A stretch of DNA of 64,000 nt. It comes from Actinomycetota bacterium (GTDB lineage Bacteria; Actinomycetota; Humimicrobiia; JAHJRV01). The notes beneath the pieces are model-generated. The model searched no databases and had not been told where the DNA came from. It saw only the letters and a list, made by a program, of their open reading frames with translations. The translations under genes and the position numbers were made by a program. The stretch covers positions 30,628 to 94,627 of the forward strand of contig JAHJRV010000094.1 of the NCBI GenBank assembly GCA_018830725.1, read 5' to 3'. Position 1 is the first letter of the stretch. Each line of letters opens with the position of its first letter. Shown piece after piece: positions 2,909 to 63,359 of the stretch.

Positions 2909-3439
2909 ATGAAGCGAAGGAACTACAAAAAAAATGGAAAATATATGAAAAGAGTAATTGATTTGAGAGACTTTATAGATAAAATAGAAAATCAATTGAT
3001 TAAAGGAAGGGGGAAGTGGATTGCTGAGTTCAATGAATCATTTATAAACTATCCACTTGATAATTTTGTTTTTCCATTAGTTGTTAGAGGGCAAACAAGA
3101 AGTAAAGGATTTTTACTCTCGAGATTATTTGCTTACTTGGCCATGCCAAACTATTTGGTGTCATGTTTTGTATATCCTTCAGAAATAAATTCATATATTA
3201 AAAAAGAGAAACTAGAAATATTACTTAGAGAAATATCCAAAATGATGAAGAAGAACAATGTAAAATGGTCCTGGCTTATCATCCCAAAAGAGGGTGAATT
3301 TAATCAAAGAATAATAAAGTGGGTTGAAAAAAATGACCTTTCTAATATTGGTATTGCTTTAGTAGACTTAAATACTAAAAATATTTTAACTAATAATTCA
3401 GTTATAGGAAGAAAAATTAAAACTATTTTAAAATTTTAG
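2909..3439 (+). CDS. hypothetical protein (basic N-terminus; start may be the internal MKRVIDL)
   Basis: 176-aa ORF with no recognisable motif. Confidence 0.35.
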   Translation: MKRRNYKKNGKYMKRVIDLRDFIDKIENQLIKGRGKWIAEFNESFINYPLDNFVFPLVVRGQTRSKGFLLSRLFAYLAMPNYLVSCFVYPSEINSYIKKEKLEILLREISKMMKKNNVKWSWLIIPKEGEFNQRIIKWVEKNDLSNIGIALVDLNTKNILTNNSVIGRKIKTILKF

Positions 3440-3527: not shown

Positions 3528-3959
3528 ATGAAGAAAATATCAAAAATAAATTTTGGAGATTTAGGAAAATCATTCTCTATCTTTTTTATTCTTATAGTGA
3601 CATTACGAATTATTACAAATTTCTTATTCACAAAGATTATAATTGTAGAGTGGTGGATTTTAACAATAGAGCTAATTTTAGCTGCTATTGTGTCCTATTT
3701 GTATTATAGACTTAAATATCATCCCACCTTTAGTTATGACAAAGAAAGTTTTATTTTAGAAATTGGTAAGGAAAAAATATCCTCAAAATGGAAAGATTTT
3801 AAATTTATCTCTTTGTATTATAGTGGTTTAGGAAAAACTTCTTTAAGATTATATATAAATGATATCTATAAAGATGATTATATTGAAATCTCAGTCTCTG
3901 ATTTAAGACTTAATCCAAAAGATTTTAGAAGTGAAGTTTCAAAATTAATTTCAAACTAA
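3528..3959 (+). CDS. hypothetical membrane protein (2 TM helices plus a possible bacterial PH-like domain)
   Basis: 143 aa. Two hydrophobic helices are followed by a soluble tail, an architecture like DUF304/bPH_2 proteins. Confidence 0.35.
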   Translation: MKKISKINFGDLGKSFSIFFILIVTLRIITNFLFTKIIIVEWWILTIELILAAIVSYLYYRLKYHPTFSYDKESFILEIGKEKISSKWKDFKFISLYYSGLGKTSLRLYINDIYKDDYIEISVSDLRLNPKDFRSEVSKLISN

Positions 3960-4910: not shown

Positions 4911-5681
4911 TTAACCCCTCCCTACTTCCTCAACTTCTTTATACCATTTTTTCTTTGTACCAACCTTAGACCTTATTTTCCATTTCAAGCTTTTAGGTTC
5001 ATCTTCTATTCTTTCAAGTATTTTATCAATTCTATCTGTAACTATTTTGCTATTTTCATCCGTCAAAGATTCGAATTCACCCAGAAAATTTTTAACTTTT
5101 TTAAGGTTAGTTGTCACTGTATAATAATATCCCCAATCTTTTGCCAGAAGCTTAGATATATAGTTCATGTTTATTGTTTCTTCTTCCTTATCCCCAACAT
5201 CGTGCTCAAGTAACATTATACTAGTATCTTTGATATCCTTTGGATTTATCTCTACTATCTGCATCTTTTCTAATAATATATCAGTTAAAGTGATAGTAGG
5301 GTCATCTAATTCCAATCTGTTTCTAAAATCAACCTTGTGACACATATCTAACTCATCAAAAAAGATATCTACTTGCCATTTTTTCTCATCACTCCAGTAG
5401 ATTTGTCTTTTTTTACCATACAATGCAAAAAATATCGGGCTTATTGGTTCATAACCTAAATCCTTAAAAAATTTTTTCATTCCTTCTCTAAATTTTCCAT
5501 ATGTCATTAAGTCTATATCTGTAAGTGGTCTCTTCATTTCATCATATAGATACCTATATTTTGGACTATGATTTTTTACTGCAATTGAACCCAATAATCT
5601 AAAAATTATCCCTTTTTCTTTGCCTTTTTCAATTATTTTAAATGCTTCTTCAACAAAAGCTTTATCTCTTTCAGGATCCAT
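4911..5681 (-). CDS. nucleotidyltransferase-fold (pol-beta-like) protein, translationally coupled to the metallophosphoesterase
   Basis: LLGSIAV...TDIDLM gives a GS...DxD pattern, and VDIFFDE supplies a third acidic residue. The GS-D spacing is longer than canonical, so the call is tentative. The stop lies 3 nt before the downstream gene start. Confidence 0.4.
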   Translation of the reverse strand: MDPERDKAFVEEAFKIIEKGKEKGIIFRLLGSIAVKNHSPKYRYLYDEMKRPLTDIDLMTYGKFREGMKKFFKDLGYEPISPIFFALYGKKRQIYWSDEKKWQVDIFFDELDMCHKVDFRNRLELDDPTITLTDILLEKMQIVEINPKDIKDTSIMLLEHDVGDKEEETINMNYISKLLAKDWGYYYTVTTNLKKVKNFLGEFESLTDENSKIVTDRIDKILERIEDEPKSLKWKIRSKVGTKKKWYKEVEEVGRG

Positions 5682-5878
5682 AACTCCTCCTATTTTAATT
5701 AATTATCGATAAAATAAATTATATATAATTTATTTTATTTTATTAATTAATTTATTAATTATATCAGTAAAATTTAAAGAATCAATATATTGTATTATCT
5801 TTTGTCACAATTACAAAATGTTAAAAATAATAAATTTAAATGAGATTGCACAGCCTGTTCCGAGCAAGCTCCTGGTTG

Positions 5879-6520
5879 TCATTCAGAAGAGCTTTCCTTT
5901 AATATCTTTTCTAAAGCTCTTACTTGCTTATCTGATAGAATTTTAGGTTCACCTACCTGAAGAGCTTTATGATAAATTTTTGCTGATTCTTCTACTAATA
6001 TCGCAATTAAAACTGCATTCGATAATGAAGAGCCTATTGTTAAAACTCCATGACTTTCTAAAAGAACTGCTGATCTATTAGAAAGTTTTTTAAGTGATTT
6101 TTTTGCCAATTCTTCTGAACCAGGAAGTGCAAAATCAACAACTGGAATATCTCCTCCTACTGAAAAGAATGTCTCAATATGTATAAGAGGAATACTCTTT
6201 TTAAGTACAGCAAAGCATGCAGCATATGGAGAATGCGTATGAGCAATTCCAAAGATATCCTCCCTATTTTTATAAATTTTTAAATGAATGGGAGTCTCAT
6301 ATGATGGTTTATTTTTACCCTCAATCTTATTTCCATTTATATCTAAAACTACAATATCCTGTAGATTTAAAAATTCCCTGAGTACTCCATGAGGAGTAAC
6401 AAAAATATATCCTGTTTCTCTATCCCTTAAACTAAAATTACCAGTTGTTGGGACAACCAAACCTAATTTCTCAGCTTTTTGAGCCCAGAAAATAACCTCA
6501 TTTTTATAATCTTCATACAT
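5879..6520 (-). CDS. class II aldolase/adducin-family protein (FucA/AraD/MtnB-like)
   Basis: Motifs GNFSLR, PSYETPIH and HTHSPY. Confidence 0.7.
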   Translation of the reverse strand: MYEDYKNEVIFWAQKAEKLGLVVPTTGNFSLRDRETGYIFVTPHGVLREFLNLQDIVVLDINGNKIEGKNKPSYETPIHLKIYKNREDIFGIAHTHSPYAACFAVLKKSIPLIHIETFFSVGGDIPVVDFALPGSEELAKKSLKKLSNRSAVLLESHGVLTIGSSLSNAVLIAILVEESAKIYHKALQVGEPKILSDKQVRALEKILKESSSE

Positions 6521-11416: not shown

Positions 11417-13162
11417 TTACATAAAGATTCTTAAAATTGCTGGAAAGGTTGAGAAGATTCCTTCAAAAACAAACCATAAAAATACTATTATAATAATTTC
11501 TGCTACAATTTGATTTTTAAAATCTAAAAATTTATAAAATAGAAAAGTAAAAATGGATGCAATTATGTATCCAATGATTGTATAAGAAGGTAAAAATTCT
11601 ACATTAAGGAGATTTTTAATACCAGGAAAAAAGAATCTACTAAATGAAGCTATCATAGATACAATTAAAATAATTAACAGAATATGTAAGCTACTTTTAG
11701 CCATTTTAGAAACTAAGTAATTTACAATTATTAAAGATAAAATTAAAGTTAAAATAACTGCTCCAATGTTTAGAATGGAAATCATGGAAGATAGAATAAG
11801 AGAAAAAAGATATCCTCCCATTCCAAAAAAATACTCTTTTTTACTTCCAATTCCCAATTTATTAAATAAATTAGTTCTAACTACATCTTTATTATCTTTA
11901 TAAACAACTTTACTGGTTTGATCGGGATTAAATCCTATCCAAAAGAATTGAGCGTAATCATCTTCGTAAGGAAAAACTTTTGGCAGATATGTGTCTTCAC
12001 CCCTGTCATTTACTCTCATCTCATCTTTAACAATAGTACCATCTTTATTTATTAGTTTATAGTAAGTTTCAAGTCTATCTCTTCTGTTATCCATCCAGAC
12101 TAAGTGTATTTTATCCTTGTTGGAAGAGATGTATGGATTGTAAGACCATTTCAATGTTCTTGTTATAAATTCACCTCTTGTAATATCTTTTCCGTCCAAA
12201 TCAAATATATCCATAATTATGTCTTTGTGCCCACCTATTTCAAGACTTAAATCTTCTTCAGTTATAAGACCTGATCTAAAAATATAAATTCTATTTTCAT
12301 TAACAAAATGAACTGCTTGAATATTAGTTGTGTACAATATTGTTCTGCCAACTTTTTTTTCAAAAATCTTTTCAAAGTCTTGAGTAAATACTCCTAAATA
12401 TATAAATGGTCTCTTAGGGTCTTCTCTAATGTCTCGCCAAATTATATATAATCTATCATTAAAAAATTGCAACTTTGGTTGCTTTGCTTTTCCTTGAGGT
12501 ATCTCTGATAGTTTGTAAGTATCTGAAATATTTCCATCTGAACTAACTTTTATACCAGATAGACCTGTTACACCCTCCTTTATATCTGAAAATACTAAAT
12601 AGATATTATTTTGAGAGTCAAAACATACATTAATATCATCAATGTATTTTCCCTCATAAATTGTTTCTGGGCTTGAAATGTTTTTTCCATCCTTATTAAT
12701 TGTAATGTTATTTAAATTATTTCTCCTATTTTCATTATTAATTGATGAGTAGAAAATGTTAATTTTTCCAGCATCATCAACAAGAATTTTATAATCTATA
12801 TAAGAGCTTTTTTTAGAATCTAGAATTGTTTCAGGTATAAGAGTTTTAAGATTCTCATTGAATTTAGTAAATTTTAGACAAAGATTTTCATTAACTCTAT
12901 CTATCCATACAATCTCGTAATTTTTTAATTTATCTTTATATACAGAATATGAAGTTGATTTAAAACTATCAATTATGGTTTTTGAAACAGAGAATCCCTC
13001 ATCCACCTCAACTAAAAATTTTCCCGATAATTCAGGATTACCAAAGATTTTCTCATAAACTGGTGGTAGCAAAGAGCAGATTATAAGTAGAAATAAGAAT
13101 AAAACTACTTTTAAGAAAATGGGAAAATACTTTATTAATATAGATTTATTATGTGTGTTCAT
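11417..13162 (-). CDS. hypothetical membrane-anchored protein (N-terminal TM, large Asn/Tyr/Asp-rich beta-rich domain, C-terminal multi-TM region)
   Basis: 581-aa ORF with no recognisable catalytic motif. Confidence 0.35.
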   Translation of the reverse strand: MNTHNKSILIKYFPIFLKVVLFLFLLIICSLLPPVYEKIFGNPELSGKFLVEVDEGFSVSKTIIDSFKSTSYSVYKDKLKNYEIVWIDRVNENLCLKFTKFNENLKTLIPETILDSKKSSYIDYKILVDDAGKINIFYSSINNENRRNNLNNITINKDGKNISSPETIYEGKYIDDINVCFDSQNNIYLVFSDIKEGVTGLSGIKVSSDGNISDTYKLSEIPQGKAKQPKLQFFNDRLYIIWRDIREDPKRPFIYLGVFTQDFEKIFEKKVGRTILYTTNIQAVHFVNENRIYIFRSGLITEEDLSLEIGGHKDIIMDIFDLDGKDITRGEFITRTLKWSYNPYISSNKDKIHLVWMDNRRDRLETYYKLINKDGTIVKDEMRVNDRGEDTYLPKVFPYEDDYAQFFWIGFNPDQTSKVVYKDNKDVVRTNLFNKLGIGSKKEYFFGMGGYLFSLILSSMISILNIGAVILTLILSLIIVNYLVSKMAKSSLHILLIILIVSMIASFSRFFFPGIKNLLNVEFLPSYTIIGYIIASIFTFLFYKFLDFKNQIVAEIIIIVFLWFVFEGIFSTFPAILRIFM

Positions 13163-19597: not shown

Positions 19598-21262
19598 TTA
19601 GTCAAGTTTTTTCAGTCTTTCATAAACAACAGTGCCACCATTACCTGCTTCATAAACTGTTTTGAAATTTTCCTTATATTTTTCAATTATCGGGTACACA
19701 TATTTCATAAAGCGCTCATTTGTTTTATCCTGTATTATAAAATTAGATTTATTCAAATACTTCTTTTGTTTTTGTTCATCATCACTATACGGAAATGCTA
19801 TTGTTTCCCTCCCGGTTAAAATATAAACTAAGAAATTACTCCTGCTAAGTATTGAACTACCATCATAAGAATTTTCCTTTAACCAATACATTGCATCATA
19901 GAAATTCTCCCATTGTTTGCTATATATAAAAATTCCCTTATTTTTGTAATCAAGGCTTTTTTTTATCACAAAATATCCACTATATGTACTTCCAACTAAA
20001 AATATAATAAAAGTTAATATTAAAACTGTTGATGCAAATATTTTAATTATTTTTTTTGTTGAAATTTTTAGTATTATCTTTTTAAAAAACAAGACCCCGC
20101 TTGAAAAAAGAATGATTAAAATAGGAATTACGCAAATTGTAAGTCTTTCTGATTGCCATGGCCACATAAGAAGTCCTACAAAGTAGAAAATAAAATATAA
20201 TATATAAATATATTTTCTCCTTTTTAAAAAATATATAATTCCTAAAATGACAAATATTATTACTACTAAAATTGCAATAAAATGTAAATCTTTAATTTTT
20301 AAAATTTCAAAAATATTTGAATTTTTAATTACAAAAATATTTCTTCTTAAAATATTTGAAATATTGCCTTTTAAAATATCTTTTAAGCCATTTGTCAGCT
20401 GCGAAAAAACTGCTTTAAAATAATAATCAAAATTTGATTTTGCTCTTTCAAAAAATTTTATAAAATCTATATCCCCTTTAGAATAATCACTAAGATTGAC
20501 TTTAAAGAACTCACTTACATAGCTAACTTTATTTGAAATTACTACTCTTAAGTTCCACAAAATAACTGGTACTAACGTAAATACAAAATAAATTCCTGAT
20601 CTAATTTTGTTCTCACTTAAAAAGATTTGTATAAAGATTGCAAGGATGATGAAAATACCAATTGGTCTAATTAAAAAAGTAAAGATTGAAAAAAATATCA
20701 ATAATAAAAAATTTTTATCTCTTAAATACTCACCAATAATATCATTGATTTTATAGATGTTTTTTTTCTTCTTCTTATTGCTATCATTGTTTTTATTTTC
20801 ACTACTTCCCCTATCATCAATGTTGGTATTATAATTATTATCTTTATTAATTTTCTTTTCTGTTAGACTAAAGAAATATAAAGTGATAAGAATAAAAAGA
20901 TTATATACAGTCTCTGTCATTACCTTAGATGAGAAGCTTAAAAGTTCAGGATGAGTTATAAAAAAAATTGTTGCCAGCAATAAAGTTAATCTATCCAGAT
21001 CCTTTTTTGCTACAAGGTAGAAAAATAAAACAGAGAGAATAAAACATGTAAAAACAATTATTTTGGAAACTATTAAGATGTTTACTTCAATAAATTTAGA
21101 ACCTAAAATAAAATAAAAAAATGATAATATAAGTGGAAAACCTGGATATGCCTTGTAATCAGGAGAATTTTCTGGATAATTTATCAGTCTAAATCCAGAT
21201 CCTAAAGAAATGGATTTTCCAAGTATCATATATCTTGCATTATCACCAAAACAAGACAACAC
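19598..21262 (-). CDS. polytopic membrane protein, possibly a GT39/GT83-like glycosyltransferase. Start is uncertain: GTG at 21262 or the ATG at M12.
   Basis: More than 10 TM helices and an internal Lys/Asn-rich low-complexity insert. No firm motif. Confidence 0.35.
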   Translation of the reverse strand: MLSCFGDNARYMILGKSISLGSGFRLINYPENSPDYKAYPGFPLILSFFYFILGSKFIEVNILIVSKIIVFTCFILSVLFFYLVAKKDLDRLTLLLATIFFITHPELLSFSSKVMTETVYNLFILITLYFFSLTEKKINKDNNYNTNIDDRGSSENKNNDSNKKKKKNIYKINDIIGEYLRDKNFLLLIFFSIFTFLIRPIGIFIILAIFIQIFLSENKIRSGIYFVFTLVPVILWNLRVVISNKVSYVSEFFKVNLSDYSKGDIDFIKFFERAKSNFDYYFKAVFSQLTNGLKDILKGNISNILRRNIFVIKNSNIFEILKIKDLHFIAILVVIIFVILGIIYFLKRRKYIYILYFIFYFVGLLMWPWQSERLTICVIPILIILFSSGVLFFKKIILKISTKKIIKIFASTVLILTFIIFLVGSTYSGYFVIKKSLDYKNKGIFIYSKQWENFYDAMYWLKENSYDGSSILSRSNFLVYILTGRETIAFPYSDDEQKQKKYLNKSNFIIQDKTNERFMKYVYPIIEKYKENFKTVYEAGNGGTVVYERLKKLD

Positions 21263-24500: not shown

Positions 24501-24671
24501 TTTATTTTCTCCTTTCTTTAAAAAATGTTTATAAAAAAATTTAAAAATTAATATTAAGGAAAATCTTATCATTTTACCAGATTCTTTAATATATTTAATG
24601 AGATTCTTCCCCTTTCCCTTCGCTACGCTCAAGGGTCAGGGTCAGAATGACAAATAAATAATAGATATCTT

Positions 24672-24751
24672 CTATAGGCTTTCTATTATTTCTATAGGTT
24701 TTCTATTATTTCTATAGGTTTTCTACTATTTTTATAGGCTTTCTACTATTT
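24672..24751. repeat. four tandem 20-nt units TCTATAGGyTTTCTAyTATT. The last unit overlaps the whiA stop codon.
   Basis: Read directly: 24672-24691, 24692-24711, 24712-24731 and 24732-24751, with 1-2 substitutions per unit. Confidence 0.85.
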
Positions 24752-31768: not shown

Positions 31769-31824
31769 TAGATTTGTGGCATGGTTTCGAAGACATTTAG
31801 TCAAGAAACTATGCCCAAATCTTT
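31769..31824. repeat. short (arms-only) copy of the MITE-like inverted-repeat element
   Basis: tagatttgtggcatggtttcgaagacattt / caagaaactatgcccaaatc. This is identical to the arms of the 43689-43803 copy but lacks the GC core. Confidence 0.7.
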
Positions 31825-31850
31825 CAAAGGTTATTTAATTCATTTTTTTA

Positions 31851-31878
31851 ATGAGATTGCGCAGCCTGTTCCGAGCAT
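31851..31878. repeat. 26-28-nt motif AATGAGATTGCrCAGCCTGTTCCGAGCA (second copy at 5838-5865)
   Basis: Both copies lie immediately 3' of the stop of a minus-strand gene (uvrB here, the aldolase at 5879). Confidence 0.6.
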
Positions 31879-31910
31879 TAGCGAGGAAGCCCATCCCTCG
31901 CAAGGACAAG

Positions 31911-42530: not shown

Positions 42531-42682
42531 CTTTTAGAAAATAAATTAAAAGTCTCACTTTTTAATTTAATGAAGTTATAAGTTATTAAAAATTAAATTA
42601 CATTTAAGAATTAAATTAGTACAATATTGTCTTAATAATAACACAATAAAAAAAGCATTTATTAGAATTTTTAAATATACAC

Positions 42683-42725
42683 CCTCCCCCTACCCCCTCC
42701 CTTAAAGGGAGGGGAATTGAGTAAA
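42683..42725. repeat. core-only GC-rich hairpin module (CCCTACCCCCTCCC-TTAAA-GGGAGGGG) related to the MITE cores
   Basis: The CCCCTCCC/GGGAGGGG stem and CCCTACCCCCTCCC motif are shared with the 43689-43803 and 54868-54984 copies. Confidence 0.6.
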
Positions 42726-42750
42726 AATATAAATTTTTTTTAAATCTTAT

Positions 42751-43688: not shown

Positions 43689-43803
43689 AGATTTGTGGCA
43701 TGGTTTCGAAGACATTTTACCCTCTCCCTACCCCCTCCCCCCTCTCCTTATTCCTCTCCCACCAGGGGAGAGGATAAACAATCAAGAAACTATGCCCAAA
43801 TCT
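43689..43803. repeat. full-length MITE-like element: imperfect about 18-nt terminal inverted repeats flanking a GC-rich core with the CCTCTCCC-ACCA-GGGGAGAGG hairpin
   Basis: Arms tttgtggcatggtttcgaag / caagaaactatgcccaaa are reverse complements. Core: ccctctccctaccccctcccccctctccttattcctctcccaccaggggagagg. Confidence 0.75.
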
Positions 43804-47075: not shown

Positions 47076-47265
47076 TTAGAAATAGGCTACTGCACTCCTT
47101 CCCTATCAAGGGAGGTGAGCCTTTCTCCTTTCTTTTAATAATGTATCTTCTTACTCTATTAGAGTTAATTCAGTTAATAGTTGAAATTATTTCACAGACT
47201 TTTTAATTTTTTAATAGAGAATTTTATAAACTTAAAATTTAAATTATATCTCATGATGTATATCA

Positions 47266-50849: not shown

Positions 50850-51351
50850 TCCCTCCTTCCTAAAATAAAAGTAACTTTAAATATTATTATATTTAAAATC
50901 GTAGCCAAATATCTTTAAATTATTAACAAAAATAGTAATAAATATTCTAATATTAAAAAATATAAAAATACAATTCAATATTTAATTTAAAATTAGCTTT
51001 ATATTTATACTTAAAAGCTTACTCGAGAAATTTGTGCAGTAAATAGTTCAAAAACATAGATTTAATTTATAAATAGTATAAACTATTTTTACCAATCCAA
51101 AAAAATATTAAAGTAATTTATTATAAAAACATATTAATATCAGAATTCTAAAAGATTTTAGAAAATTTTAATAATTACTTTATGAGTTAAATTTAGTTTA
51201 CGATTTTATTGGCTTTCTGTATAATTTAATGATGTTGCCTTAAAACTTTTGAATTTGTATTTTTTAAAATAATTTCTAAGTTTCCTTCTTTTTTAAAGTA
51301 AAATTCAGTATATATATAAATAAAATTAATAACCTAAACAAAGGCTTCAGA

Positions 51352-54300
51352 TTGTCATTACAAAATGAGCAAAATTTGATAAAAAAAATATCCAAAACTG
51401 GCGCGGTAATGGTTATAGGTGCTGGTGTTTCAGGAATTCAAGCTTCACTGGACTTAGCTGACTCTGGATATAAGATTTATTTAGTGGAGAAGGGACCATC
51501 AATTGGTGGAAAAATGACACAGTTGGATAAAACATTTCCTACCAATGACTGTGCCACCTGTATAGTTGCTCCCAAATTAGTTGAATGTATAAGACATCGA
51601 AATATCGAGACAATGACGCTTTGTGAAATAGTAAAGGTCGACGGTTATGCTGGAAGCTTTAAGGTTACAATTAAAAGAAATCCAAGATATGTTGATTTAG
51701 ACAAATGTACTGGGTGTGGTCAGTGTGAGAAAGCATGTCCAGTTAAATTACCAAATGAATTTGATTTGGGACTATCTCAAAGAAAGGCTATTTACAGATT
51801 CTCTCCACAAGCAGATCCCAATGTTCCAGTTATAGATGCACCTAATTGCAGATATTTAACAATGGGAAAATGTGAAGCTTGCAGTAAAATATGTCCAACG
51901 GGTGCAATAAACTTTGAGGATAGGAAAGAATTAATTAATTTAGATGTTGGTGCCTTAATTTTAGCAGTAGGATTTGAACAATCAGATATAAGCAAATTAA
52001 AAGAACTTGGTTATGGAAGATACCCTAATGTAATTACAGCTCTTCAATTTGAGAGAATAATGAATTCATCAGGTCCATTTTTAGGTCATATTCAGAGATT
52101 ATCCGATGGTAAGAAGCCGGAAAGGATTGCTTTTATTCAATGTATTGGGTCAAGAAATAAAGAAAGAGATTATTGTTCCTCTGTTTGTTGTATGCAGGCA
52201 ACCAAAGAAGCAATAATGATTAAAGAACATATTCCTGAAATCGATGTATCAATCTATTATATGGACATAAGGGTATATGGGAAAGAGTTTGACCAGTACT
52301 ATAATAGAGCCAGGGATAAATACAAGGTAAAATATATTCGATCCATGCCATCATCTATAGAAGAAGATCCGTTAACTCATAATCTATTTGTAACTTCTGT
52401 GCAAGAGAACTCATTAAAAACTGATGAGTATGATTTAGTTATTCTATCAACTGGAGTAGAACCATCAGTTGATGCTCAAGTACTATCCAAAAATATAGAT
52501 TTTGATTTAAATAAGTATGGATTCTGTAAAACAGATAGATATTCACCTGTGGAAACTACAAGAGATGGAATATACGTTTGCGGTCCTTTCTCAGAACCAA
52601 AGGATATAGCAGAATCTGTTACACAGGGATGTGCTACTGCTGGTTTAGCTGGAGCTCTCTTATCATCAAAAAGAGGGACATTGGTCAAGAAAAAAATATT
52701 TCCTGAAGAGTTGGATGTTATTGGTCAGGAACCAAGAATAGGTGTTTTCATATGTCATTGTGGAAACAACATTGCTGGAGTTGTAGACATCAATTCTGTA
52801 AAAAAATATAGTGAAAAATTGCCAAACGTGGTTTATTGCGAGGACATGAAGTATGCTTGTACTCAAGATAGTCTGCAACAAATATCTCAGATCATAAAAG
52901 AAAATAATCTTAACAGAGTAGTTGTTGCCTCATGCAGTCCAAGAACTCATGAATCATTGTTTAGAGAAAGTTTAAGAAATGCTGGATTAAATCAATTCTT
53001 GTTTGAGATGGCAAACATCAGAAATCAATGCAGCTGGGTTCATTCTAATCAACCAGAAAAAGCGACAGAAAAATCAAAGGACTTAATCAGGATGAGCGTA
53101 GCAAGAGCAGCCAGTTTAGAACCGTTAGAATTATTTTCCATCCCCATTAATAAAAAAGCCCTTATTTTGGGAGCTGGAGTTGCGGGAATGACTGCTGCTC
53201 TAACAATTAGCAAACAAGGTTTTGAAGTAGTTTTAATTGAAAAGAAAAATGAGCCAGGTGGTTTGTCTAAGAGAATAGAATATGATTTTGAAGGAAAGCA
53301 ACCAAAAAAATTTGTAGAAGAACTTATAAACAAAATAGAAAAAAATCCAAATATAACCCTTTTAACAAATTCTGAAATAACTCATATTGCTGGTTTCGTT
53401 GGGAACTTTAAGTCAAAAATAAAGCGCAGAATTAAAGATGGGGAGTTTAAACAGATTGATATTGAACATGGAGTACTAATAGTAGCAACTGGTGGTGAAG
53501 AGTATCAGGGAACTGATTATGGTTATGGAACAAATAATAAAATCTTAAGTCAATTAGAATTTGAGCATAAATTAGTAGAAAAAGAAATTAACCCGAAGCA
53601 ATTGGAGAAAGTCGTTATGATACAATGTGTTGGCTCTCGAACAGAAGAACATCCATATTGTAGTAGAGTTTGTTGTGGAGAAGCTATAAAGAACGCTCTC
53701 AGACTAAAAGAGATTAACCCTGATATAGAAATAGTTATATTATATAAAGACATTATGACTTATGGCTTTTTAGAACAATATTATACCAAAGCAAGGGATA
53801 TGGGAATTGTCTTTCTACGCTATGACGATAATAATAAGCCAGAAGTATTACCTGAGATGAATGGGAAAGTTAGAGTAAAAACTATTGACCTGAGTTTGAG
53901 AAGAGAATTTTTAATAGATTGTGATCTTCTCTTATTAAGTAGAGGTATAATTCCCTCCCCCAGCAATGAGGAACTATTTAAGATTTTAAGAGTATCATTG
54001 ATAGAACAGGGATTTTATGAGGAAGCGCATCCCAAATTGAGACCAGTTGATTTTGCTTCAGAGGGTTTCTTCCTGTGCGGATTAGCTCATACTCCAAGAC
54101 ATATAGGAGAAGTCGTAGCACAAGCACAAGCAGCTGCTTCAAGAGCAACAGTTATACTTTCCCAAAAAGAACTTCTTGCTGGAGGAGAAGTTTCTGTTGT
54201 TGACCAGGACAAATGTGTTGCTTGTCTTAACTGTGTAAGAATATGCCCATATCAGGTTCCATTTATAAATGAAAATGGAGTAGCTCAGATTGAGGTTACT

Positions 54301-54423
54301 AACTGCTATGGATGTGGGATTTGTGTAGGAGTTTGTCCTATCCATGCTATTATTTTAAAGAACTATAAGGATGAACAAGTTATACCAAAAATTGAAGCTC
54401 TTTTTAAGAAGGAGTTGGTATGA
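51352..54423 (+). CDS. hdrA: heterodisulfide reductase subunit A-like flavoprotein, double-module form (two FAD sites, two CxGxRD-x(n)-CSxxCC motifs, three ferredoxin-type 2x[4Fe-4S] sites). TTG start is likely.
   Basis: VIGAGVSGIQASLDLA and ILGAGVAGMTAALTIS Rossmann motifs. CIGSRNKERDYCSSVCC and CVGSRTEEHPYCSRVCC. Ferredoxin sites CTGCGQCEKACP / CEACSKICP / CVACLNCVRICP / CYGCGICVGVCP. Confidence 0.8.
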   Translation: MSLQNEQNLIKKISKTGAVMVIGAGVSGIQASLDLADSGYKIYLVEKGPSIGGKMTQLDKTFPTNDCATCIVAPKLVECIRHRNIETMTLCEIVKVDGYAGSFKVTIKRNPRYVDLDKCTGCGQCEKACPVKLPNEFDLGLSQRKAIYRFSPQADPNVPVIDAPNCRYLTMGKCEACSKICPTGAINFEDRKELINLDVGALILAVGFEQSDISKLKELGYGRYPNVITALQFERIMNSSGPFLGHIQRLSDGKKPERIAFIQCIGSRNKERDYCSSVCCMQATKEAIMIKEHIPEIDVSIYYMDIRVYGKEFDQYYNRARDKYKVKYIRSMPSSIEEDPLTHNLFVTSVQENSLKTDEYDLVILSTGVEPSVDAQVLSKNIDFDLNKYGFCKTDRYSPVETTRDGIYVCGPFSEPKDIAESVTQGCATAGLAGALLSSKRGTLVKKKIFPEELDVIGQEPRIGVFICHCGNNIAGVVDINSVKKYSEKLPNVVYCEDMKYACTQDSLQQISQIIKENNLNRVVVASCSPRTHESLFRESLRNAGLNQFLFEMANIRNQCSWVHSNQPEKATEKSKDLIRMSVARAASLEPLELFSIPINKKALILGAGVAGMTAALTISKQGFEVVLIEKKNEPGGLSKRIEYDFEGKQPKKFVEELINKIEKNPNITLLTNSEITHIAGFVGNFKSKIKRRIKDGEFKQIDIEHGVLIVATGGEEYQGTDYGYGTNNKILSQLEFEHKLVEKEINPKQLEKVVMIQCVGSRTEEHPYCSRVCCGEAIKNALRLKEINPDIEIVILYKDIMTYGFLEQYYTKARDMGIVFLRYDDNNKPEVLPEMNGKVRVKTIDLSLRREFLIDCDLLLLSRGIIPSPSNEELFKILRVSLIEQGFYEEAHPKLRPVDFASEGFFLCGLAHTPRHIGEVVAQAQAAASRATVILSQKELLAGGEVSVVDQDKCVACLNCVRICPYQVPFINENGVAQIEVTNCYGCGICVGVCPIHAIILKNYKDEQVIPKIEALFKKELV

Positions 54424-54854
54424 GTAATTTTGAACCTGAAATAATAGCTTTTTGTTGTAATCAATGTGCATATGCTGCAGCTGACCTTACTGGTTCTATG
54501 AGAATGAATTATCCTCCAAATGTTAAGATAATTAAACTACCTTGTGCTGGAAAATTTGAAACAATATATATGTTGAAAGCGTTTGAAATGGGAGCTGATG
54601 GAGGAATCGTGGCGGGATGTTTGGAAGGTTGTTGTCATTATAGAACTGGAAATCTGCAAGCAGCTAAAAGAATTAAAAGGGTTAAGAGGATATTAAAAGA
54701 GTTAGGTTTGGAAGAAGAAAGAGTCGATATATTTTATATGTCTTCAGCTATGGGACGTGAATTTGCTGAAGCTGCTACTAAAATAACTGAGACGGTTAGA
54801 AAGTTAGGTCCAAATCCAATTAAAAAAATCAAATCTGAAAAAGTAAAAATTTAA
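54420..54854 (+). CDS. mvhD: methyl-viologen-reducing hydrogenase delta subunit-like protein (MvhD)
   Basis: Cys pattern FCCNQC...CAG...GCLEGCC typical of the MvhD [2Fe-2S] site. It overlaps hdrA by 4 nt (ATGA). Confidence 0.75.
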   Translation: MSNFEPEIIAFCCNQCAYAAADLTGSMRMNYPPNVKIIKLPCAGKFETIYMLKAFEMGADGGIVAGCLEGCCHYRTGNLQAAKRIKRVKRILKELGLEEERVDIFYMSSAMGREFAEAATKITETVRKLGPNPIKKIKSEKVKI

Positions 54855-54867
54855 ATATTATTGAAAG

Positions 54868-54984
54868 CTTTGGGCAAAGTTTCTCTCTTCCCCTCCCTTT
54901 ATGGGAGGGGGTAGGGAGATTATCCTCTCCCCTGGTGGGAGAGGGTAGGGAGAGGGTAAAATGTCTGCGAAACCATGCCACAAA
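54868..54984. repeat. MITE-like element, inverted orientation, with a duplicated GC core (both hairpin modules)
   Basis: Its reverse complement aligns to the 43689-43803 copy. It contains CCCCTCCC-TTTAT-GGGAGGGG and CCTCTCCC-CTGGT-GGGAGAGG hairpins. Confidence 0.75.
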
Positions 54985-55084
54985 GCTATTTATTACGAAA
55001 ATTAAATTTAAAAAATCAATTATTTAATAAATTCTGATAAAATTTTGTTTTAAAATTTTTTAAGTATTTTTATAATAGATTATT

Positions 55085-58000
55085 ATGGAAGATATCTCTA
55101 AAATAAGTAAAGAATTAGAAAAGATTGGCTCAGTATTAGTAGTTGGTGGCGGTACTGCTGGTGTTCAAGCAGCTTTTGATCTTGTTGAGTCTGGCTTCAA
55201 AGTCTACCTTGTTGAAAAATCGTGGACTCTGGGTGGTAAGATGGCTCAACTTGACAAAACATATCCTACTCTTGATTGCTTTTTCTGTGGAATAGCTCCT
55301 GAACCATTGGGTTGTCTACGTAATTTTGATGTAGAAACTATGGCTTTTGATGATGCACTTGTTGATATAAGTGAAAAAAGAATGTGCAGAGCAACAATAG
55401 TGAGAAAGCCTCACTACATTGATGGGAAACATTTTAATTTAGAGATTTTATCTTCAGTTGAGGTTTCCAGAGTACGTGGATATCCTGGCAACTTTGAAGT
55501 GGCATTATATAAAACACCTAACTTTGTAGATATAAATAAATGTACTGGATGTGGAAAATGTGCTGAGGTCTGCCCAGTAAAAATTCCAAGTGAGTATGAT
55601 GCCAGTCTGGTTGAAAGAAAAATAATCTATCGACCTTACCCACAAATTATGAAAAATATCTTCAGAATAGATAAGATAGATTTAAAGGAAGAGGTACAGA
55701 AATATCATCCAGAATTAGATATTAAAAGTTGTCTTTCATGTAGAAAATGTGAAGAAATATGTCCTGAAGGTGCTATAAACTTTAATGCTGTCCCTGAAAT
55801 GCAATACATCAATGTAGGGGCGATAATTTTAGCTCAGGGATTTGAACTTATTGATCCATTTACTATAACTGAACTTGGTTTTAGTAGGTTCAAAAATGTG
55901 ATCACCTCTCTCCAATTAGAAAGAATCATGACTAAATCTGGTCCTTCGGGAGGAAGACTTGTCAGACCATCCGATGATAAAGAGCCAGGAAAAATCGGTT
56001 TTATTCAGTGCGTTGGAACAAGAAATAAGAAACATGATTATTGTTCGACTGTATGCTGCATGCATGCTACAAAGGAAGCAATCTTAGCCAAAGAAAATTT
56101 GCCAGAAATAGAAGCTAAAATTTTTACACTTGATATGAGGGCATACGGTAAAGGTTATGAGGAACTATATCAAAAAGCAAAGAATTTTTATGGGGTTGAC
56201 TACATAAGAAGTAGACCTTCCTTTATTGAAGAAGACCCAGAAACTCAAGACTTAATTATTACCTATGTAAGTAAAAATGGTAAATTAGTGAAAGAAAATT
56301 TTCAAGTGATTGTTCTTTCTATGGGGTTTGTTGCTCCAAAAACAACCAAAAGAGATAGTCAAATATATCAAATAGAACTGAACGAGCATGGATTTATCAA
56401 AACTACTGATTTTAAACCTCTAAATACAAGTAGAGATGGAATATTTGTATGTGGTTCCTTCTCTGAACCAAAAGACATACCAGATTCTATCACTGAAGGA
56501 AGTGGAACTACTGCTTTGGCATCAGCATTGTTAGCAGATCAAAAAGGCAGTCTTATTGAGAAAAAGAAATATCCTATTCAAATGGAAATTGATTATGAAA
56601 ATCCAAGAATTGGTGTAATTCTTTGTCAGTGTGGAAATGAGATTTCCAGAGTAGTTAAGATGGCAGAGTTGGTAAAATTTATAAGAACCATCAGTGATAT
56701 AGTTGTTGTAGAAAATGAATTCTATGCTTGCTCACCTCAAATTGAGAAAAAAATAGAATATATTATGACTCAGTATAATCTAAACAGATTAGTTGTAGGT
56801 GCCTGCTCTCCAAGAACACATGCTCCGCTTTTCAAAGAAATTCTAAGAGATATTGGAATAAATTATAATATGGTTGAGGTTGTTAATTTAAGAGAACAAT
56901 GTAGTTGGGTTCACTATAGTTCTCCCTATAAGGCGACTCAAAAAGCTATGAGCTTAATTCAGATGGCAATAGCTAAAATAAAGAAAGCAAAACCACTTCT
57001 GGAAAATTATGTAGGTATTAATTCTCGAGCACTTATAGTAGGTGGAGGAATGGCAGGAATGGTAGTAGCCTTGAACCTGGCAGAGCAAGGACATCCTGTA
57101 ACCTTAGTAGAAAAAGAGGATGAGTTAGGAGGGCATTTAAAAAAGATAGTTTTTACCCTATCAGGAGAAGATCCACAAAAACTATTGGTTAATCTAAGAA
57201 AGATGATCAGTTCAAATACGAATATAGAAGTTTTATTCAATTCAGAAGTTACAGATGTGAAGGGATATGTTGGTAATTTCCAGTCAAAAGTAGTTATAAA
57301 AAAACCAGGAGAAAAAGAGGAAATCAAAAAAATTATGCATGGGGTTACCATCATTGCCACAGGTGGAGATGAGTATAGGGGTAATGAATACCTGTTAAAT
57401 AAAGATAGTAGAGTAATGACACAAGTTGATTTTGAACAAAAACTTACTGATAACCAGGAGAAACTAGGTACAATAGGTAACCTGGCTATGATTCAATGTG
57501 TAGGATGTAGAAATAATGAAAGAACTTATTGTAGTAGGGTTTGTTGTGGAAAAGCCATAAAAAATGCAATTAAATTTAAGGAAAAAAATCCTGATTCAAA
57601 TATATTTATTTTTTATAAGGATATTAGAAGCTACGGATTTATAGAGCAGTATTATACAAAAGCACGAGAAATGGGTATTATGTTTATGAGATTTGAAGAT
57701 GATAAAAAACCTGAAGTGCAAAAGTATAATAATAAAAAATCATTAGAGATTTCATTCTTCGATCTTAATTTAAAAAAGAATCTTAAAATTAAAGTAGGTT
57801 TAATTGTTCTTTCTACAGCCATTATTCCTCTTGAAGGAAATAAAAAATTAGCAAATATGCTGGGAGTGCCTCTGGATGAAAATGGATTCTTTTTAGAGAA
57901 GCATATAAAAGTAAGACCGGTTGATACAAAAAGGGATGGAATATTTGTTTGTGGTCTTGCTCACTCTCCTAAATATTTAAGAGAGACTATAGCTCAAGCA

Positions 58001-58297
58001 TTAGCTACTGCTTCTCGAGCAAGTACCGTCTTATCAAAGAAAGAGATGCGGATAGGAATTAAAATCTCTAAAGTAGATGAGGAGAAATGTATAGGTTGCT
58101 TAACCTGTGTAAGAGTTTGTCCTTCAGGAGTACCAAAAATAAATGAGCAAGGAGTATCTGAGATAAATCCATTTGAGTGCAAAGGTTGCGGAATATGTGC
58201 CTCTGCTTGCCCAGCTAATGCTATAGATGTAGTTAACTACCCTCATGATCAGATGATTGCTACAGAATTATCATTAAGAGAGGAAGTGTTAGTTTAA
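55085..58297 (+). CDS. hdrA: heterodisulfide reductase subunit A-like flavoprotein, double-module form (paralog of 51352-54423)
   Basis: VVGGGTAGVQAAFDL and IVGGGMAGMVVALNLA. CVGTRNKKHDYCSTVCC and CVGCRNNERTYCSRVCC. Ferredoxin Cys clusters present. Confidence 0.8.
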   Translation: MEDISKISKELEKIGSVLVVGGGTAGVQAAFDLVESGFKVYLVEKSWTLGGKMAQLDKTYPTLDCFFCGIAPEPLGCLRNFDVETMAFDDALVDISEKRMCRATIVRKPHYIDGKHFNLEILSSVEVSRVRGYPGNFEVALYKTPNFVDINKCTGCGKCAEVCPVKIPSEYDASLVERKIIYRPYPQIMKNIFRIDKIDLKEEVQKYHPELDIKSCLSCRKCEEICPEGAINFNAVPEMQYINVGAIILAQGFELIDPFTITELGFSRFKNVITSLQLERIMTKSGPSGGRLVRPSDDKEPGKIGFIQCVGTRNKKHDYCSTVCCMHATKEAILAKENLPEIEAKIFTLDMRAYGKGYEELYQKAKNFYGVDYIRSRPSFIEEDPETQDLIITYVSKNGKLVKENFQVIVLSMGFVAPKTTKRDSQIYQIELNEHGFIKTTDFKPLNTSRDGIFVCGSFSEPKDIPDSITEGSGTTALASALLADQKGSLIEKKKYPIQMEIDYENPRIGVILCQCGNEISRVVKMAELVKFIRTISDIVVVENEFYACSPQIEKKIEYIMTQYNLNRLVVGACSPRTHAPLFKEILRDIGINYNMVEVVNLREQCSWVHYSSPYKATQKAMSLIQMAIAKIKKAKPLLENYVGINSRALIVGGGMAGMVVALNLAEQGHPVTLVEKEDELGGHLKKIVFTLSGEDPQKLLVNLRKMISSNTNIEVLFNSEVTDVKGYVGNFQSKVVIKKPGEKEEIKKIMHGVTIIATGGDEYRGNEYLLNKDSRVMTQVDFEQKLTDNQEKLGTIGNLAMIQCVGCRNNERTYCSRVCCGKAIKNAIKFKEKNPDSNIFIFYKDIRSYGFIEQYYTKAREMGIMFMRFEDDKKPEVQKYNNKKSLEISFFDLNLKKNLKIKVGLIVLSTAIIPLEGNKKLANMLGVPLDENGFFLEKHIKVRPVDTKRDGIFVCGLAHSPKYLRETIAQALATASRASTVLSKKEMRIGIKISKVDEEKCIGCLTCVRVCPSGVPKINEQGVSEINPFECKGCGICASACPANAIDVVNYPHDQMIATELSLREEVLV

Positions 58298-58299
58298 TT

Positions 58300-58773
58300 A
58301 TGTTTGAACCTGAAATAATAGCTTTTTGTTGTGAATATTGTGGTTACTCTGCTGCTGATTTAGCTGGAGCGATGAGAGTCGAGTATCCTCCAAACGTTGT
58401 AATAGTAAGAGTTCCATGTGCAGGATACTTAACACATGTTCATATATTGAGAGTATTTGAGGAGGGTTATGATGGAGTCTTTATTGCTAGTTGTCTTGAA
58501 GGAAGCTGTCAATATAGAACCGGAAATGAAAGAGCAGAGAAAATGGTGTCAACAGTAAAGAAGTCGTTAGATGAAGTCAGAATAGGTGGAGAGAGATTGG
58601 AGATTTATAAAATGGCTTCCTCTATGGGAAAATATTTCGCTGATATTGCCATAAATATGACTGAGAAAATTAAAAAATTAGGTCCTAATCCTATAAAATT
58701 AATAGAAGAAAGATTTGAGGAAGAGGAGCGTAGACAGTTAAAAGAAATGGGAGTGGGAATCTCAACTACTTAA
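58300..58773 (+). CDS. mvhD: MvhD-like [2Fe-2S] protein (paralog)
   Basis: FCCEYCGYSAADL...CAG...SCLEGSC. It starts 3 nt after the hdrA stop. Confidence 0.75.
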   Translation: MFEPEIIAFCCEYCGYSAADLAGAMRVEYPPNVVIVRVPCAGYLTHVHILRVFEEGYDGVFIASCLEGSCQYRTGNERAEKMVSTVKKSLDEVRIGGERLEIYKMASSMGKYFADIAINMTEKIKKLGPNPIKLIEERFEEEERRQLKEMGVGISTT

Positions 58774-60475: not shown

Positions 60476-60548
60476 AAGGAATAGAAAATAAAAGATGGGT
60501 TCAGGTCTTGTAATATAACAAAATTTATCTAATTTTGAAGTAATAAAA

Positions 60549-60647
60549 GCTTTGGGTATACTTTCTTGAGTATTTATCCTCTCCCCTGGTGGGAGAGGAA
60601 TAAGGAGAGGGGGAATTTAAAATGTCTTCGAAAGTATACTACGAAGC
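60549..60647. repeat. MITE-like element, inverted orientation, with diverged but still self-complementary arms
   Basis: Arms gggtatactttcttgag / cgaaagtatactacgaag. Core ttattcctctcccctggtgggagagg is shared with the other copies. Confidence 0.7.
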
Positions 60648-60703
60648 TAAAAATCTCTATAAAAATAAACTTTTGAAATTAAAATTACAAAAAATGGTGA
60701 AAA

Positions 60704-62249: not shown

Positions 62250-63359
62250 TTATTTCACAAAATAGGTATTTCTAATGTTCTCTGATACTTTGTTTAATAG
62301 AATTAGTGCTTTGTCCGCTTCTTCCTCTGAAACTGTTCCCAAGCCACAGGAATGTGTCAAAAGGGATCTCCTCAAAATGAAATCTTTATCTAAACCTTTA
62401 TTAACAAGAAATTCGATCTGTTTATTAAACTTATTAATTATTTCTTCAATTAGGTTATTTATATTATCTTCTCTTGGTTCTGTTGGAACTATCCCCCATG
62501 CTAATACTTTTCCCCTATTTAAAAACTCAATTATTTCATCACTATATATTGAGAAATTTTCAAAATAGTTATATGCATCGAAATTTATGATATCAACATC
62601 TGTTTCGGTTATAAGTGACCAATCAGTTTTTCCGCAACAATGAATTCCCTTTATACCATTAACAGCATTAAAACATTGATTTAATTGATTAATAATCTGT
62701 TCTTTGGAAAGACTTATATAAGAAGACCCTAATGAAGCTAAATAGGGCTCATCAAAAAATATTATACTCTGACAATTAGGGCAGATTTTTTTAAATTCAT
62801 TTTCCTGCCACTTTGCAATCATTGATATTGATTTAACTGCAGTATCCTGAATTATATTATTATAAAAAATTGGTTTTCTATCCTGGTCTAATAAACTAAA
62901 ACCAAGTGTAATTGGTCCAGTAACTTGCCCCTTGATGTACTTTATATCACCCCTAATATTATTAATATTACTTAGGAGTTTTATATCATCACAATATTTT
63001 CCACTCATAATTTCTATAAATTTATAAAATCCTTTTGCTCTATTTGAAGAAATTGCAAAATTATCTATTTTTTTAGAAGTGTATTTAATATAAAACTCAT
63101 CCAAATTTTTAATGTAATCTTTTTCTGTATCAATCCATATCTTTTCATTCTCGTAATCTACTATCTCATTTGGTATATGCTCTGAAAATTGAGCACTCAT
63201 ATTTTCCAGGAAATTTATTTTAGGTAGCTGAGGCCAATATGGAGCAATTGGATACAACTCTAAAACTTTTAAACATGTATACTTTACATCTTTAAAAGGT
63301 AAACTTCCTACCCCTGTGGCAATACATTTTGGTTCAAAATCCAATTTCTTCTCATTCAT
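62250..63359 (-). CDS. UROD/MetE-superfamily methyltransferase (cobalamin-independent methionine synthase catalytic-domain-like)
   Basis: TGVGSLPF (resembles MetE TTIGSFPR), IFFDEPYLA (resembles IQIDEP), IHCCG and THSCGLG putative Zn ligands. Confidence 0.45.
   Translation of the reverse strand: MNEKKLDFEPKCIATGVGSLPFKDVKYTCLKVLELYPIAPYWPQLPKINFLENMSAQFSEHIPNEIVDYENEKIWIDTEKDYIKNLDEFYIKYTSKKIDNFAISSNRAKGFYKFIEIMSGKYCDDIKLLSNINNIRGDIKYIKGQVTGPITLGFSLLDQDRKPIFYNNIIQDTAVKSISMIAKWQENEFKKICPNCQSIIFFDEPYLASLGSSYISLSKEQIINQLNQCFNAVNGIKGIHCCGKTDWSLITETDVDIINFDAYNYFENFSIYSDEIIEFLNRGKVLAWGIVPTEPREDNINNLIEEIINKFNKQIEFLVNKGLDKDFILRRSLLTHSCGLGTVSEEEADKALILLNKVSENIRNTYFVK

Follow-up and report, generated by a model that had tools for sequence, protein, structure and literature searches.

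What is the hairpin that stands between the genes of an uncultured actinobacterium, in copy after copy and almost always facing the same way, and how has it spread? The question arises from a 64,000-nt stretch of contig JAHJRV010000094.1 (Actinomycetota; Humimicrobiia), here called the window, in which an earlier sequence-only reading had described a family of inverted-repeat elements, among them the copy at 43689-43803, and had likened them to miniature inverted-repeat transposable elements (MITEs). We find that they form a new, lineage-specific family of small, dispersed, non-coding palindromic repeats that lie between genes and resemble the repetitive extragenic palindromic (REP) sequences. 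Our preferred explanation, which we consider probable and hold with moderate confidence, is that the repeat is non-autonomous, is recognised as a folded hairpin, has spread in trans in a strand-specific manner and is tolerated when it lies sense in mRNAs.

One orientation relative to transcription

The window holds four copies of the hairpin, whose spans are given here with the 3-bp extension of the stem, and one GC-rich module outside any hairpin of the family. Neighbouring genes are named after Pfam assignments, with which the gene identities proposed earlier agree.

31770..31822, minus strand: copy A, an "empty" hairpin of arms only (47-nt core at 31773-31819 plus an AGA/TCT stem extension), after uvrB and before uvrA, sense to both genes
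43689..43803, minus strand: copy B, a hairpin with a loop insert, after gatB and before a xylose-isomerase-like TIM-barrel gene
43720..43781, minus strand: loop insert of copy B, sense strand TTGTTTAT-CCTCTCCCCTGGTGGGAGAGG-AATAAGGAGAGGGGGGAGGGGGTAGGGAGAGGGT
54866..54987, plus strand (earlier described as inverted): copy C, a hairpin with two tandem GC modules, of CCCCTCCC type and then of CCTCTCCC type, after mvhD and before a second hdrA-like gene
54884..54957, plus strand: loop insert of copy C, two pyrimidine-tract/purine-tract hairpins
60548..60648, plus strand (earlier described as inverted): copy D, a hairpin of the GTATAC subfamily with a 47-nt type I module, after metF and before a 4Fe-4S protein gene
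60573..60619, plus strand: type I module in copy D, TTTAT-CCTCTCCCCTGGTGGGAGAGG-AATAAGGAGAGGGGGAATTTA
42677..42736, minus strand: solo GC module with its hairpin core at 42694-42714, after the isomerase-like gene and before dnaE

All four copies listed by the sequence-only reading are real, and they exceed chance by far. A 26-nt arm pattern with at most 3 mismatches has 3 matches in the window (0.00 expected from dinucleotide shuffles) and an 18-nt arm pattern has 5 (0.10 expected), and a repeat finder independently recovered the copy pairs I1, I2, I12, I13, D14, D16 and D18. Copies A and B and the solo module are read on the plus strand amid minus-strand genes, and copies C and D on the minus strand amid plus-strand genes, so that all copies in the window share one polarity relative to transcription, a regularity that had been missed. 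On the coding strand each of them reads 5'-TTTGGGCATAG...CCACAAA-3'.

The family is a genuine dispersed repeat and reaches far beyond the window. An exact degenerate 23-mer from the 3' arm gave 68 matches at 55 loci in 4 metagenome-assembled genomes (MAGs) among 185,579 species-representative genomes, and a pattern of the loop alone added 118 metagenome loci. All four MAGs are Actinomycetota, one labelled Candidatus Humimicrobiia and three "Actinomycetes bacterium". Each of these incomplete MAGs holds 10-30 exact 23-mer matches, and the 64-kb window has 4 copies. Two of the MAGs have loci that match the window at 94-97% identity, and no fetched locus is closer. The collected loci (numbered with an L below) amount to 1.37 Mb, an element-centred, biased and partial sample, and contain 224 full copies. 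Bare hairpins of 47, 48 or 49 nt make up 197 of the 224, while 27 carry loop inserts that bring the total to 72-259 nt; the "arms only" copy A is thus the standard form, and copies B, C and D belong to a decorated minority. Two scans of viral contigs did not find the family, and BLAST against plasmids and phages gave chance matches of 19-28 nt only. No Rfam family matched the element at permissive thresholds, the best sub-threshold scores (17-29 bits, against thresholds of 66-167) being microRNA or small RNA look-alikes; at threshold, the only Rfam matches in the window are two tRNA-Leu genes. In the literature on Humimicrobiia we found nothing about repeats.

The polarity seen in the window holds across this sample. 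Between co-directional genes, a first data set had 58 full copies, every one of them sense. In the full set, with orthologous sites merged, co-directional gene pairs hold 66 sense and 2 antisense sites and contig edges 15 sense and 1 antisense, which gives 81 sense against 3 antisense independent sites (about 96% sense); the remaining sites are 2 convergent, 1 divergent and 5 overlapping a called open reading frame (ORF). The 92 independent sites are a lower bound, since flanks that themselves contain repeats merge unrelated sites during flank clustering. Copies lie outside called ORFs in 215 of 224 cases, and mostly they follow genes rather than precede them: the upstream stop is nearer than the next start for 70% of the copies. 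The distance from stop to hairpin has a median of 37 nt (5th-95th percentile, 6-198). The earlier statement that every copy lies 10-60 nt downstream of a stop codon stands for gatB (12 nt), mvhD (11 nt) and the solo module (25 nt, after the isomerase-like gene), but not for metF (72 nt) or uvrB (88 nt).

Within the window, the one informative case, the polarity flips together with the genes across a divergent region at 50.85-51.35 kb, which points weakly to transcription rather than replication as its reference. A replication origin in that region was considered and rejected: the 500-nt divergent spacer (50850-51351) contains no DnaA-box cluster, and the GC skew changes sign wherever gene direction does (at about 4 kb, 51 kb and 62 kb), so that it reflects the coding strand and not replication.

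A conserved loop on freely varying stems

On the sense strand, the element reads AG[A/C]-TTTGGGCATAGTTTC-TTGAC-T(A/G)AAAT-GTC-TTC-GAAACCATGCCACAAA-[T/G]CT. The basic unit is a hairpin of 47-49 nt with 3 further base pairs at its foot (AGA..TCT, AGC..GCT or AGT..ACT), where pairing extends beyond the arms originally recognised. The stem comprises 18 bp with one bulged base and often one mismatch. Its apical region, a GAC/GTC mini-helix with an A-rich loop, is almost invariant, the four loop-adjacent pairs and most loop positions showing little or no variation. In the flanks, strong conservation is confined to the 3 stem-extending positions on each side, with weak AT-rich conservation farther out. 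Folding is strong for RNA and for single-stranded DNA alike, whichever strand is taken (z = -6 to -7): copy A reaches -23.3 kcal/mol as RNA (z = -7.1) and z = -6.0 as DNA, and copy C reaches -68.2 kcal/mol (z = -6.0).

The stems change in sequence and keep their pairing. We distinguish at least six stem variants, plus one unrelated stem described below. In a gap-free alignment of 60 distinct copies, 92% of the cells are paired, compared with 29-42% when the partner is slid by 1-3 columns, and the covariation score of 0.149 (0.073 +/- 0.005 in shuffles) was reached by none of 500 shuffles. In a set of 160 distinct copies, six positions often show compensatory pair types, for example:

Pair 6-54: CG in 84 copies, AU in 51
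Pair 13-46: CG in 76, UA in 73
Pair 17-42: GC in 85, CG in 59, UA in 9
Pair 12-47: GC in 146, AU in 9

Copy D illustrates this well, both its arms being altered and yet complementary (GTATAC/GTATAC, where other copies have GCATAG/CCATGC), as the sequence-only reading had noticed. Its conclusion that selection acts on secondary structure survives in part: complementarity is indeed kept as the sequence drifts, but covariation is insufficient by itself to argue for RNA structure, for a DNA hairpin predicts complementary arms equally. Mismatches in the sense strand are G.U in 42 cases and A.C in 47 (p = 0.67, one position with a fixed A.C excluded), and with the two equally frequent the covariation is, on this evidence, no pointer to RNA. 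At the excluded position, 84 of the 160 copies, the commonest subfamily, carry A.C, which is G.U or G.T on the opposite strand; as a consequence the sense RNA hairpin is weaker than the antisense one (-23.3 versus -27.3 kcal/mol). With terminal inverted repeats (TIRs) bound as duplex DNA by a transposase, one would expect the reverse of this combination, in which the loop is conserved and the stem is free to vary as long as it pairs; the combination fits recognition of a folded single strand. The label of TIRs, given earlier to arms that prove to be the variable part around an invariant interior, is therefore not supported.

Two other roles for the conserved sequence were tried and rejected. 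A reading frame runs uninterrupted across the 47-nt form and is shifted in those of 48 and 49 nt, which speaks against a conserved peptide. The loop contains a -35-like TTGACT, without a -10 partner at usable spacing, and we do not regard it as a promoter.

We also observed several independent half-copies (L004 1305, L007 4958, L028 7606, L017 1421, L076 2285 and others) in which only the 3' half is present. These run from the AAATGTC of the loop to the 3' foot, and the sequence upstream is unrelated.

A further copy was found outside the lineage. At L124 3275-3337 (contig ODAI010145308.1, 43% GC, among priA-def-fmt-rsmB), a 26-nt loop (TTTCTTGACTAAAAATGTCTGCGAAA) identical to that of the family sits on a perfect 18-bp stem whose sequence is unrelated to the family stems. 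This copy is antisense to its flanking genes and comes from a different, higher-GC organism, so the loop motif extends beyond the Humimicrobiia-like lineage.

GC-rich modules in the loop

The loop is also a place where other sequence comes and goes. Copies B, C and D contain the GC-rich hairpins CCTCTCCC-N5-GGGAGAGG and CCCCTCCC-N5-GGGAGGGG, as had been described, and such a hairpin stands alone at 42694-42714. With the general form CCYCTCCC-N5-GGGAGRGG, these are the only strongly GC-rich islands of a window with 25-36% GC, so the contrast with an AT-rich background drawn by the sequence-only reading is well founded. A G-quadruplex or an anti-Shine-Dalgarno function for the GGGAGRGG/CCYCTCCC tracts was considered as well. 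A supposed degenerate module at 47104-47130 lacks sequence specific to the family, its fold is no stronger than that of shuffles (z = -0.77), and we have dropped it. At least three module types occur, singly or as mosaics:

Type I: TTTAT-CCTCTCCCCTGGTGGGAGAGG-GAAAGGGAGAGGGGGAATTTA
Type II: a pyrimidine-tract/purine-tract hairpin around CCCCTCCC-TTTAT-GGGAGGGG
Type III: TCCCTTCCCCTTCGTTACACTCGAGGGTCGAGGGCAGGC, found in the GTATAC subfamily

Comparison of orthologous sites shows that the modules are separable, being swapped, gained or lost. Site B has an empty hairpin in L087 and L133, type I with a G-tract in the window, and type II (CCCCTCCC type) in L003. Another site is empty in L054 and L081 (48 nt) and measures 95 nt in L026 and L020, the 47-nt type I block being a clean insertion; likewise, L006 (48 nt) corresponds to L033 and L051 (82 nt). 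The ortholog of copy D in L027 is nearly identical. The solo module is a 60-nt insertion relative to L087, which has no module there, and has a direct duplication of 9 nt, ATTTAAAAA, on its two sides (42668-42676 and 42737-42745); in L133 the module is partly deleted. A type III module is also inserted in a second repeat family (pair 195). Wherever a module sits inside a hairpin, its purine-rich side follows the sense polarity of the host hairpin, and at most sites this side lies on the coding strand of the flanking genes, with exceptions in antisense copies such as those of L012, L031 and L035. As modules come and go at orthologous hairpins, the loop is a hot spot: either small insertions of a second tier land there, or members of the family trade cassettes by gene conversion.

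In L003 3990-4180, opposite 42700-42720 of the window, about 160 extra nt hold further tandem, partly degenerate module units (ATAAAGGGAGGGGAATCATAAGAGAAGTTCTC...).

Gain, loss and read-through

Whole hairpins are gained and lost as well. Blocks of 51-245 nt are present or absent at many sites between flanks that are 97-100% identical. At one site, L054 has a spacer of 4 nt (TAA-AATT-ATG) and L053 one of about 245 nt with three hairpins, a main-family hairpin between two copies of the second repeat family. The S10/spc ribosomal-protein operon in L036 carries 4 sense copies, before S10, between S10 and L3, between L23 and L2, and after S8; L047 lacks the hairpin at the S10-L3 and L23-L2 sites.

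Since copies lie within a ribosomal-protein operon, transcription must read through them, and they are not terminators as had been suggested. The notion that intrinsic terminators were duplicated around the genome starts from stable hairpins just 3' of stop codons, but there is no U-tract after the stem in either orientation, a scan for promoter and terminator consensus sequences found 9 where 6.5 were expected, with no enrichment and without calling the elements, and other copies stand between operon partners too, after gatB and between mvhD and hdrA among them. We discount this explanation almost entirely.

How the hairpins may have spread

In the explanation that we favour, the repeat would be a selfish, non-autonomous element. 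An enzyme acting in trans would copy it, recognising loop and bulge of the folded hairpin on one strand only, much as transposases of the IS200/IS605 type and REP-associated tyrosine transposases (RAYTs) do. Strand-specific insertion, combined with the purging of harmful insertions from very short intercistronic spacers, would produce the uniform polarity. Copies would be co-transcribed within mRNAs, where the sense orientation is tolerated, and the hairpins may act secondarily in 3' or intercistronic mRNA stability or processing.

Several observations weigh against this explanation. No transposase, integrase or reverse transcriptase matched any of the 47 ORFs of the window, which agrees with the earlier remark that no transposase is encoded there, and no true candidate for an HUH-Y1 transposase emerged from a motif prefilter of the 544 ORF clusters in the partial, biased 1.37-Mb sample; the clusters found in several genomic contexts are housekeeping genes. 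Some recent insertions are flanked by clean direct duplications of 8-11 nt (ATTTAAAAA, TAAATAAA, CTAAAAATAT and TTAAAAAAATG, the last at site A and the first at the solo module), and transposition of the IS200/RAYT type is not known to produce such duplications. Orthologous sites in diverged genomes can hold different subfamilies; site A, filled likewise in L029, L131 and L132, carries a different one in L073. This calls for repeated re-insertion at the same site, a re-colonisation, or for gene conversion. Finally, 89% of adjacent gene pairs are co-directional, so that polarity relative to transcription cannot be separated from polarity relative to replication.

Six ORFs of the window, of 143-581 aa, had no Pfam or NCBIfam match at the thresholds used:

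2909-3439
3528-3959
4911-5681
11417-13162
19598-21262
62250-63359

The duplications would sit more comfortably with a classical MITE, a deletion derivative of an insertion sequence (IS) with a DDE transposase, whose arms would be bound as duplex TIRs and which would move by cut-and-paste with target duplication. The inverted-repeat arms, the small size, the AT-rich flanks and the presence/absence polymorphism all suit this idea, as do the 8-11 nt duplications at several of the cleanest events and the exact 9-nt duplication around the solo GC module. Yet the arms vary and co-vary around an invariant interior, and the duplications do not form a pattern. Some recent events show direct repeats of 5-12 nt, other events are replacements without duplication, and flanking direct repeats, at 8.9 nt, are barely longer than the 8.1 nt of a mismatched-flank control (p = 0.009), with inconsistent length and position; no target-site duplication of fixed length was found. 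In addition, the ratio of 81:3 would be unexpected for transposition of duplex TIRs, and the cognate IS with the same termini that the sequence-only reading had proposed to look for was not found in the 1.37-Mb sample. Of its MITE-like reading, what stands are the pairing arms, the dispersed family and the separable modules. The two features that define a MITE, conserved ends and a target duplication of fixed length, are lacking, and we judge a MITE origin improbable. The main rival is instead an element of the host, a cis-acting RNA that stabilises 3' or intercistronic mRNA, is processed by RNase III or RNase E, or stalls ribosomes near stop codons, its polarity being maintained by selection on RNA function. 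Such a role would account for a polarity that follows transcription across the strand switch, for copies after stop codons and within operons, for the stable fold (z = -7) and for a conserved loop that could bind a protein, and there is a parallel in Escherichia coli, where REPs stabilise upstream mRNA and may stall ribosomes when very close to a stop codon. Against it, the sense strand shows no excess of G.U over A.C, and the A.C fixed in the commonest subfamily weakens the sense hairpin. The same sites are empty in sister strains, those in ribosomal-protein operons included, loop content is freely swapped, and the L124 copy is antisense. We therefore regard selection for an RNA function as unlikely, though the most serious of the alternatives.

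Spread through an RNA or a nascent-strand intermediate, by retro-mobilisation or by priming on the lagging strand, would explain sense-only copies, variable duplications and 5'-truncated copies together. The strict polarity, the A-rich and variable (5-12 nt) target duplications and the independent half-copies that begin in the loop speak for it. On the other side, fragments of the 5' arm alone also occur, A/T-rich direct repeats are expected by chance at 30% GC, the 47 ORFs of the window include no reverse transcriptase, and no precedent for such spread is known in bacteria; we hold this route to be very improbable. Returning to the strand-specific, hairpin-recognised spread that we prefer, it is tempting to go further and to speculate, as a rather doubtful extension, that an undescribed mobilisation system is at work. 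Such a system would read the apical loop of about 26 nt, need only the pairing of the stem, operate without a nearby RAYT or IS200, and reach even the unrelated 43% GC organism of L124. The hairpin would then serve as a docking site for GC-rich mini-insertions of 38-60 nt that move between hairpins and repeat families, and the polarity would reflect a link with transcription or with the replication fork.

Comparison with known repeats

Small palindromic repeats are known chiefly from Proteobacteria, Firmicutes and mycobacteria. REPs carry a GTAG, to which an [A/G]TAG[A/C] directly before the stem of many copies (antisense strand) might be compared; here, however, the AG pairs in the stem and only the CTA (+2 to +4) is conserved. 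By definition, REP-type sequences are short (20-60 bp) imperfect palindromes, extragenic and present in many copies per genome (PMC3116915). The present family shares its size, palindromy, extragenic location and copy number with the REPs, bacterial interspersed mosaic elements (BIMEs) and REPINs of Proteobacteria, which are mobilised by RAYTs. It also shares with REPs and BIMEs a lineage-specific sequence, the lack of coding capacity, a hairpin with a bulge or mismatch, and occurrence both as singlets and in mosaics with other short motifs. In working principle, the family stands closest to REPs and BIMEs. It differs from them in conserving the loop rather than the stem, in its near-absolute polarity relative to genes and in its actinobacterial host of 30% GC, and no RAYT was found in the window or among the 544 ORF clusters of the partial sample. 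A REPIN is a doublet of inverted palindromic REPs, whereas here a single stem-loop has arms, TTTGGGCATAGTTTC and GAAACCATGCCACAAA, that are not self-complementary.

Mycobacterial interspersed repetitive units (MIRUs) resemble the family in another respect, for they too keep one orientation relative to transcription, in operon spacers of Actinomycetota, as our sense copies and those of S10/spc do. MIRUs insert at gene junctions with little effect on expression (PMC12548453). They are, however, tandem direct repeats of 46-101 bp, not a single hairpin, and their small ORF overlaps the stop and start codons on either side and is coupled to the downstream start, and here the variants of 47, 48 and 49 nt break the frame and stops occur in two frames. 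The Correia elements or NEMIS of Neisseria, ERIC, RUP and BOX are likewise small, non-autonomous, co-transcribed repeats that fold into long hairpins, and the modular mosaics of BOX and BIMEs recall our loop inserts. None of Correia/NEMIS, ERIC, RUP and BOX combines a conserved loop and free stems or has a second tier of GC-rich mini-insertions, and Correia elements have conserved 26-bp TIRs, a TA duplication and either orientation, unlike the present family. Palindrome-associated transposable elements (PATEs) derived from IS200/IS605 are recognised through a hairpin on one DNA strand, with an orientation biased by the replication strand, which is reminiscent of our family. A PATE, however, retains distinct subterminal hairpins at its left and right ends and goes in 3' of a set tetra- or pentanucleotide, leaving no duplication, whereas the present element consists of a single hairpin and shows no fixed target. 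MITEs differ in their conserved ends and fixed target duplication. What is unusual in this family is thus threefold: a loop conserved while the stems vary freely, a nearly absolute polarity, and nested modules rich in GC.

The family brings such repeats to a deep, uncultured class of Actinomycetota with 30% GC. It offers a natural experiment on the spread and tolerance of repeats, with a conserved loop and co-varying stems, 96% co-orientation that holds even in ribosomal-protein operons, and fast gain, loss and cassette exchange between strains. If the polarity is mechanistic, it would indicate an unrecognised single-strand route of mobilisation. In practical terms, these repeats break MAG assemblies and mark strain-level variation, and annotation should not take them for terminators or small RNAs.

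Neighbouring repeats and a gene duplication

Other repeats accompany the hairpins. The second repeat family has the form TGTCATT-[variable GC-rich hairpin]-GCAATCTCATTAAAAA and occurs in the window at 31845-31909, 5835-5880 and 24595-24651 (all minus strand) and in many loci, for example L053 6600-6700 and L012 3080-3140. It starts directly or within a few tens of nt after stop codons, is always sense and often stands beside the main hairpin, and its base-of-stem variants co-vary (ATTGC/GCAAT versus ATTCT/AGAAT). One of its copies begins 1-2 nt past the stop of uvrB and takes up the 88 nt that separate this stop from copy A.

A third short motif, GG(G/T)TCAGGTCTTGYAATATAAC, recurs some 30-50 nt before hairpins of the GTATAC type and numbers 11 copies across the loci; it is found at 60498-60519 in the window and upstream of such hairpins in L038, L040, L041 and L044. 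At 24670-24740 (minus strand), in the whiA-gap intergenic region and beside a second-family repeat, there are 3-4 tandem copies of a unit of about 20 nt (AACCTATAGAAATAATAGAA).

The surroundings of copy C have themselves been duplicated. An hdrA-like/mvhD gene pair is repeated in tandem at 51352-54854 and 55085-58773, with a spacing of 3.87 kb and about 72% DNA identity over long stretches, and is followed by metV/metF and hdrC/B-like genes in a Wood-Ljungdahl-type electron-bifurcation cluster. Copy C stands exactly at the joint of the two duplicates.

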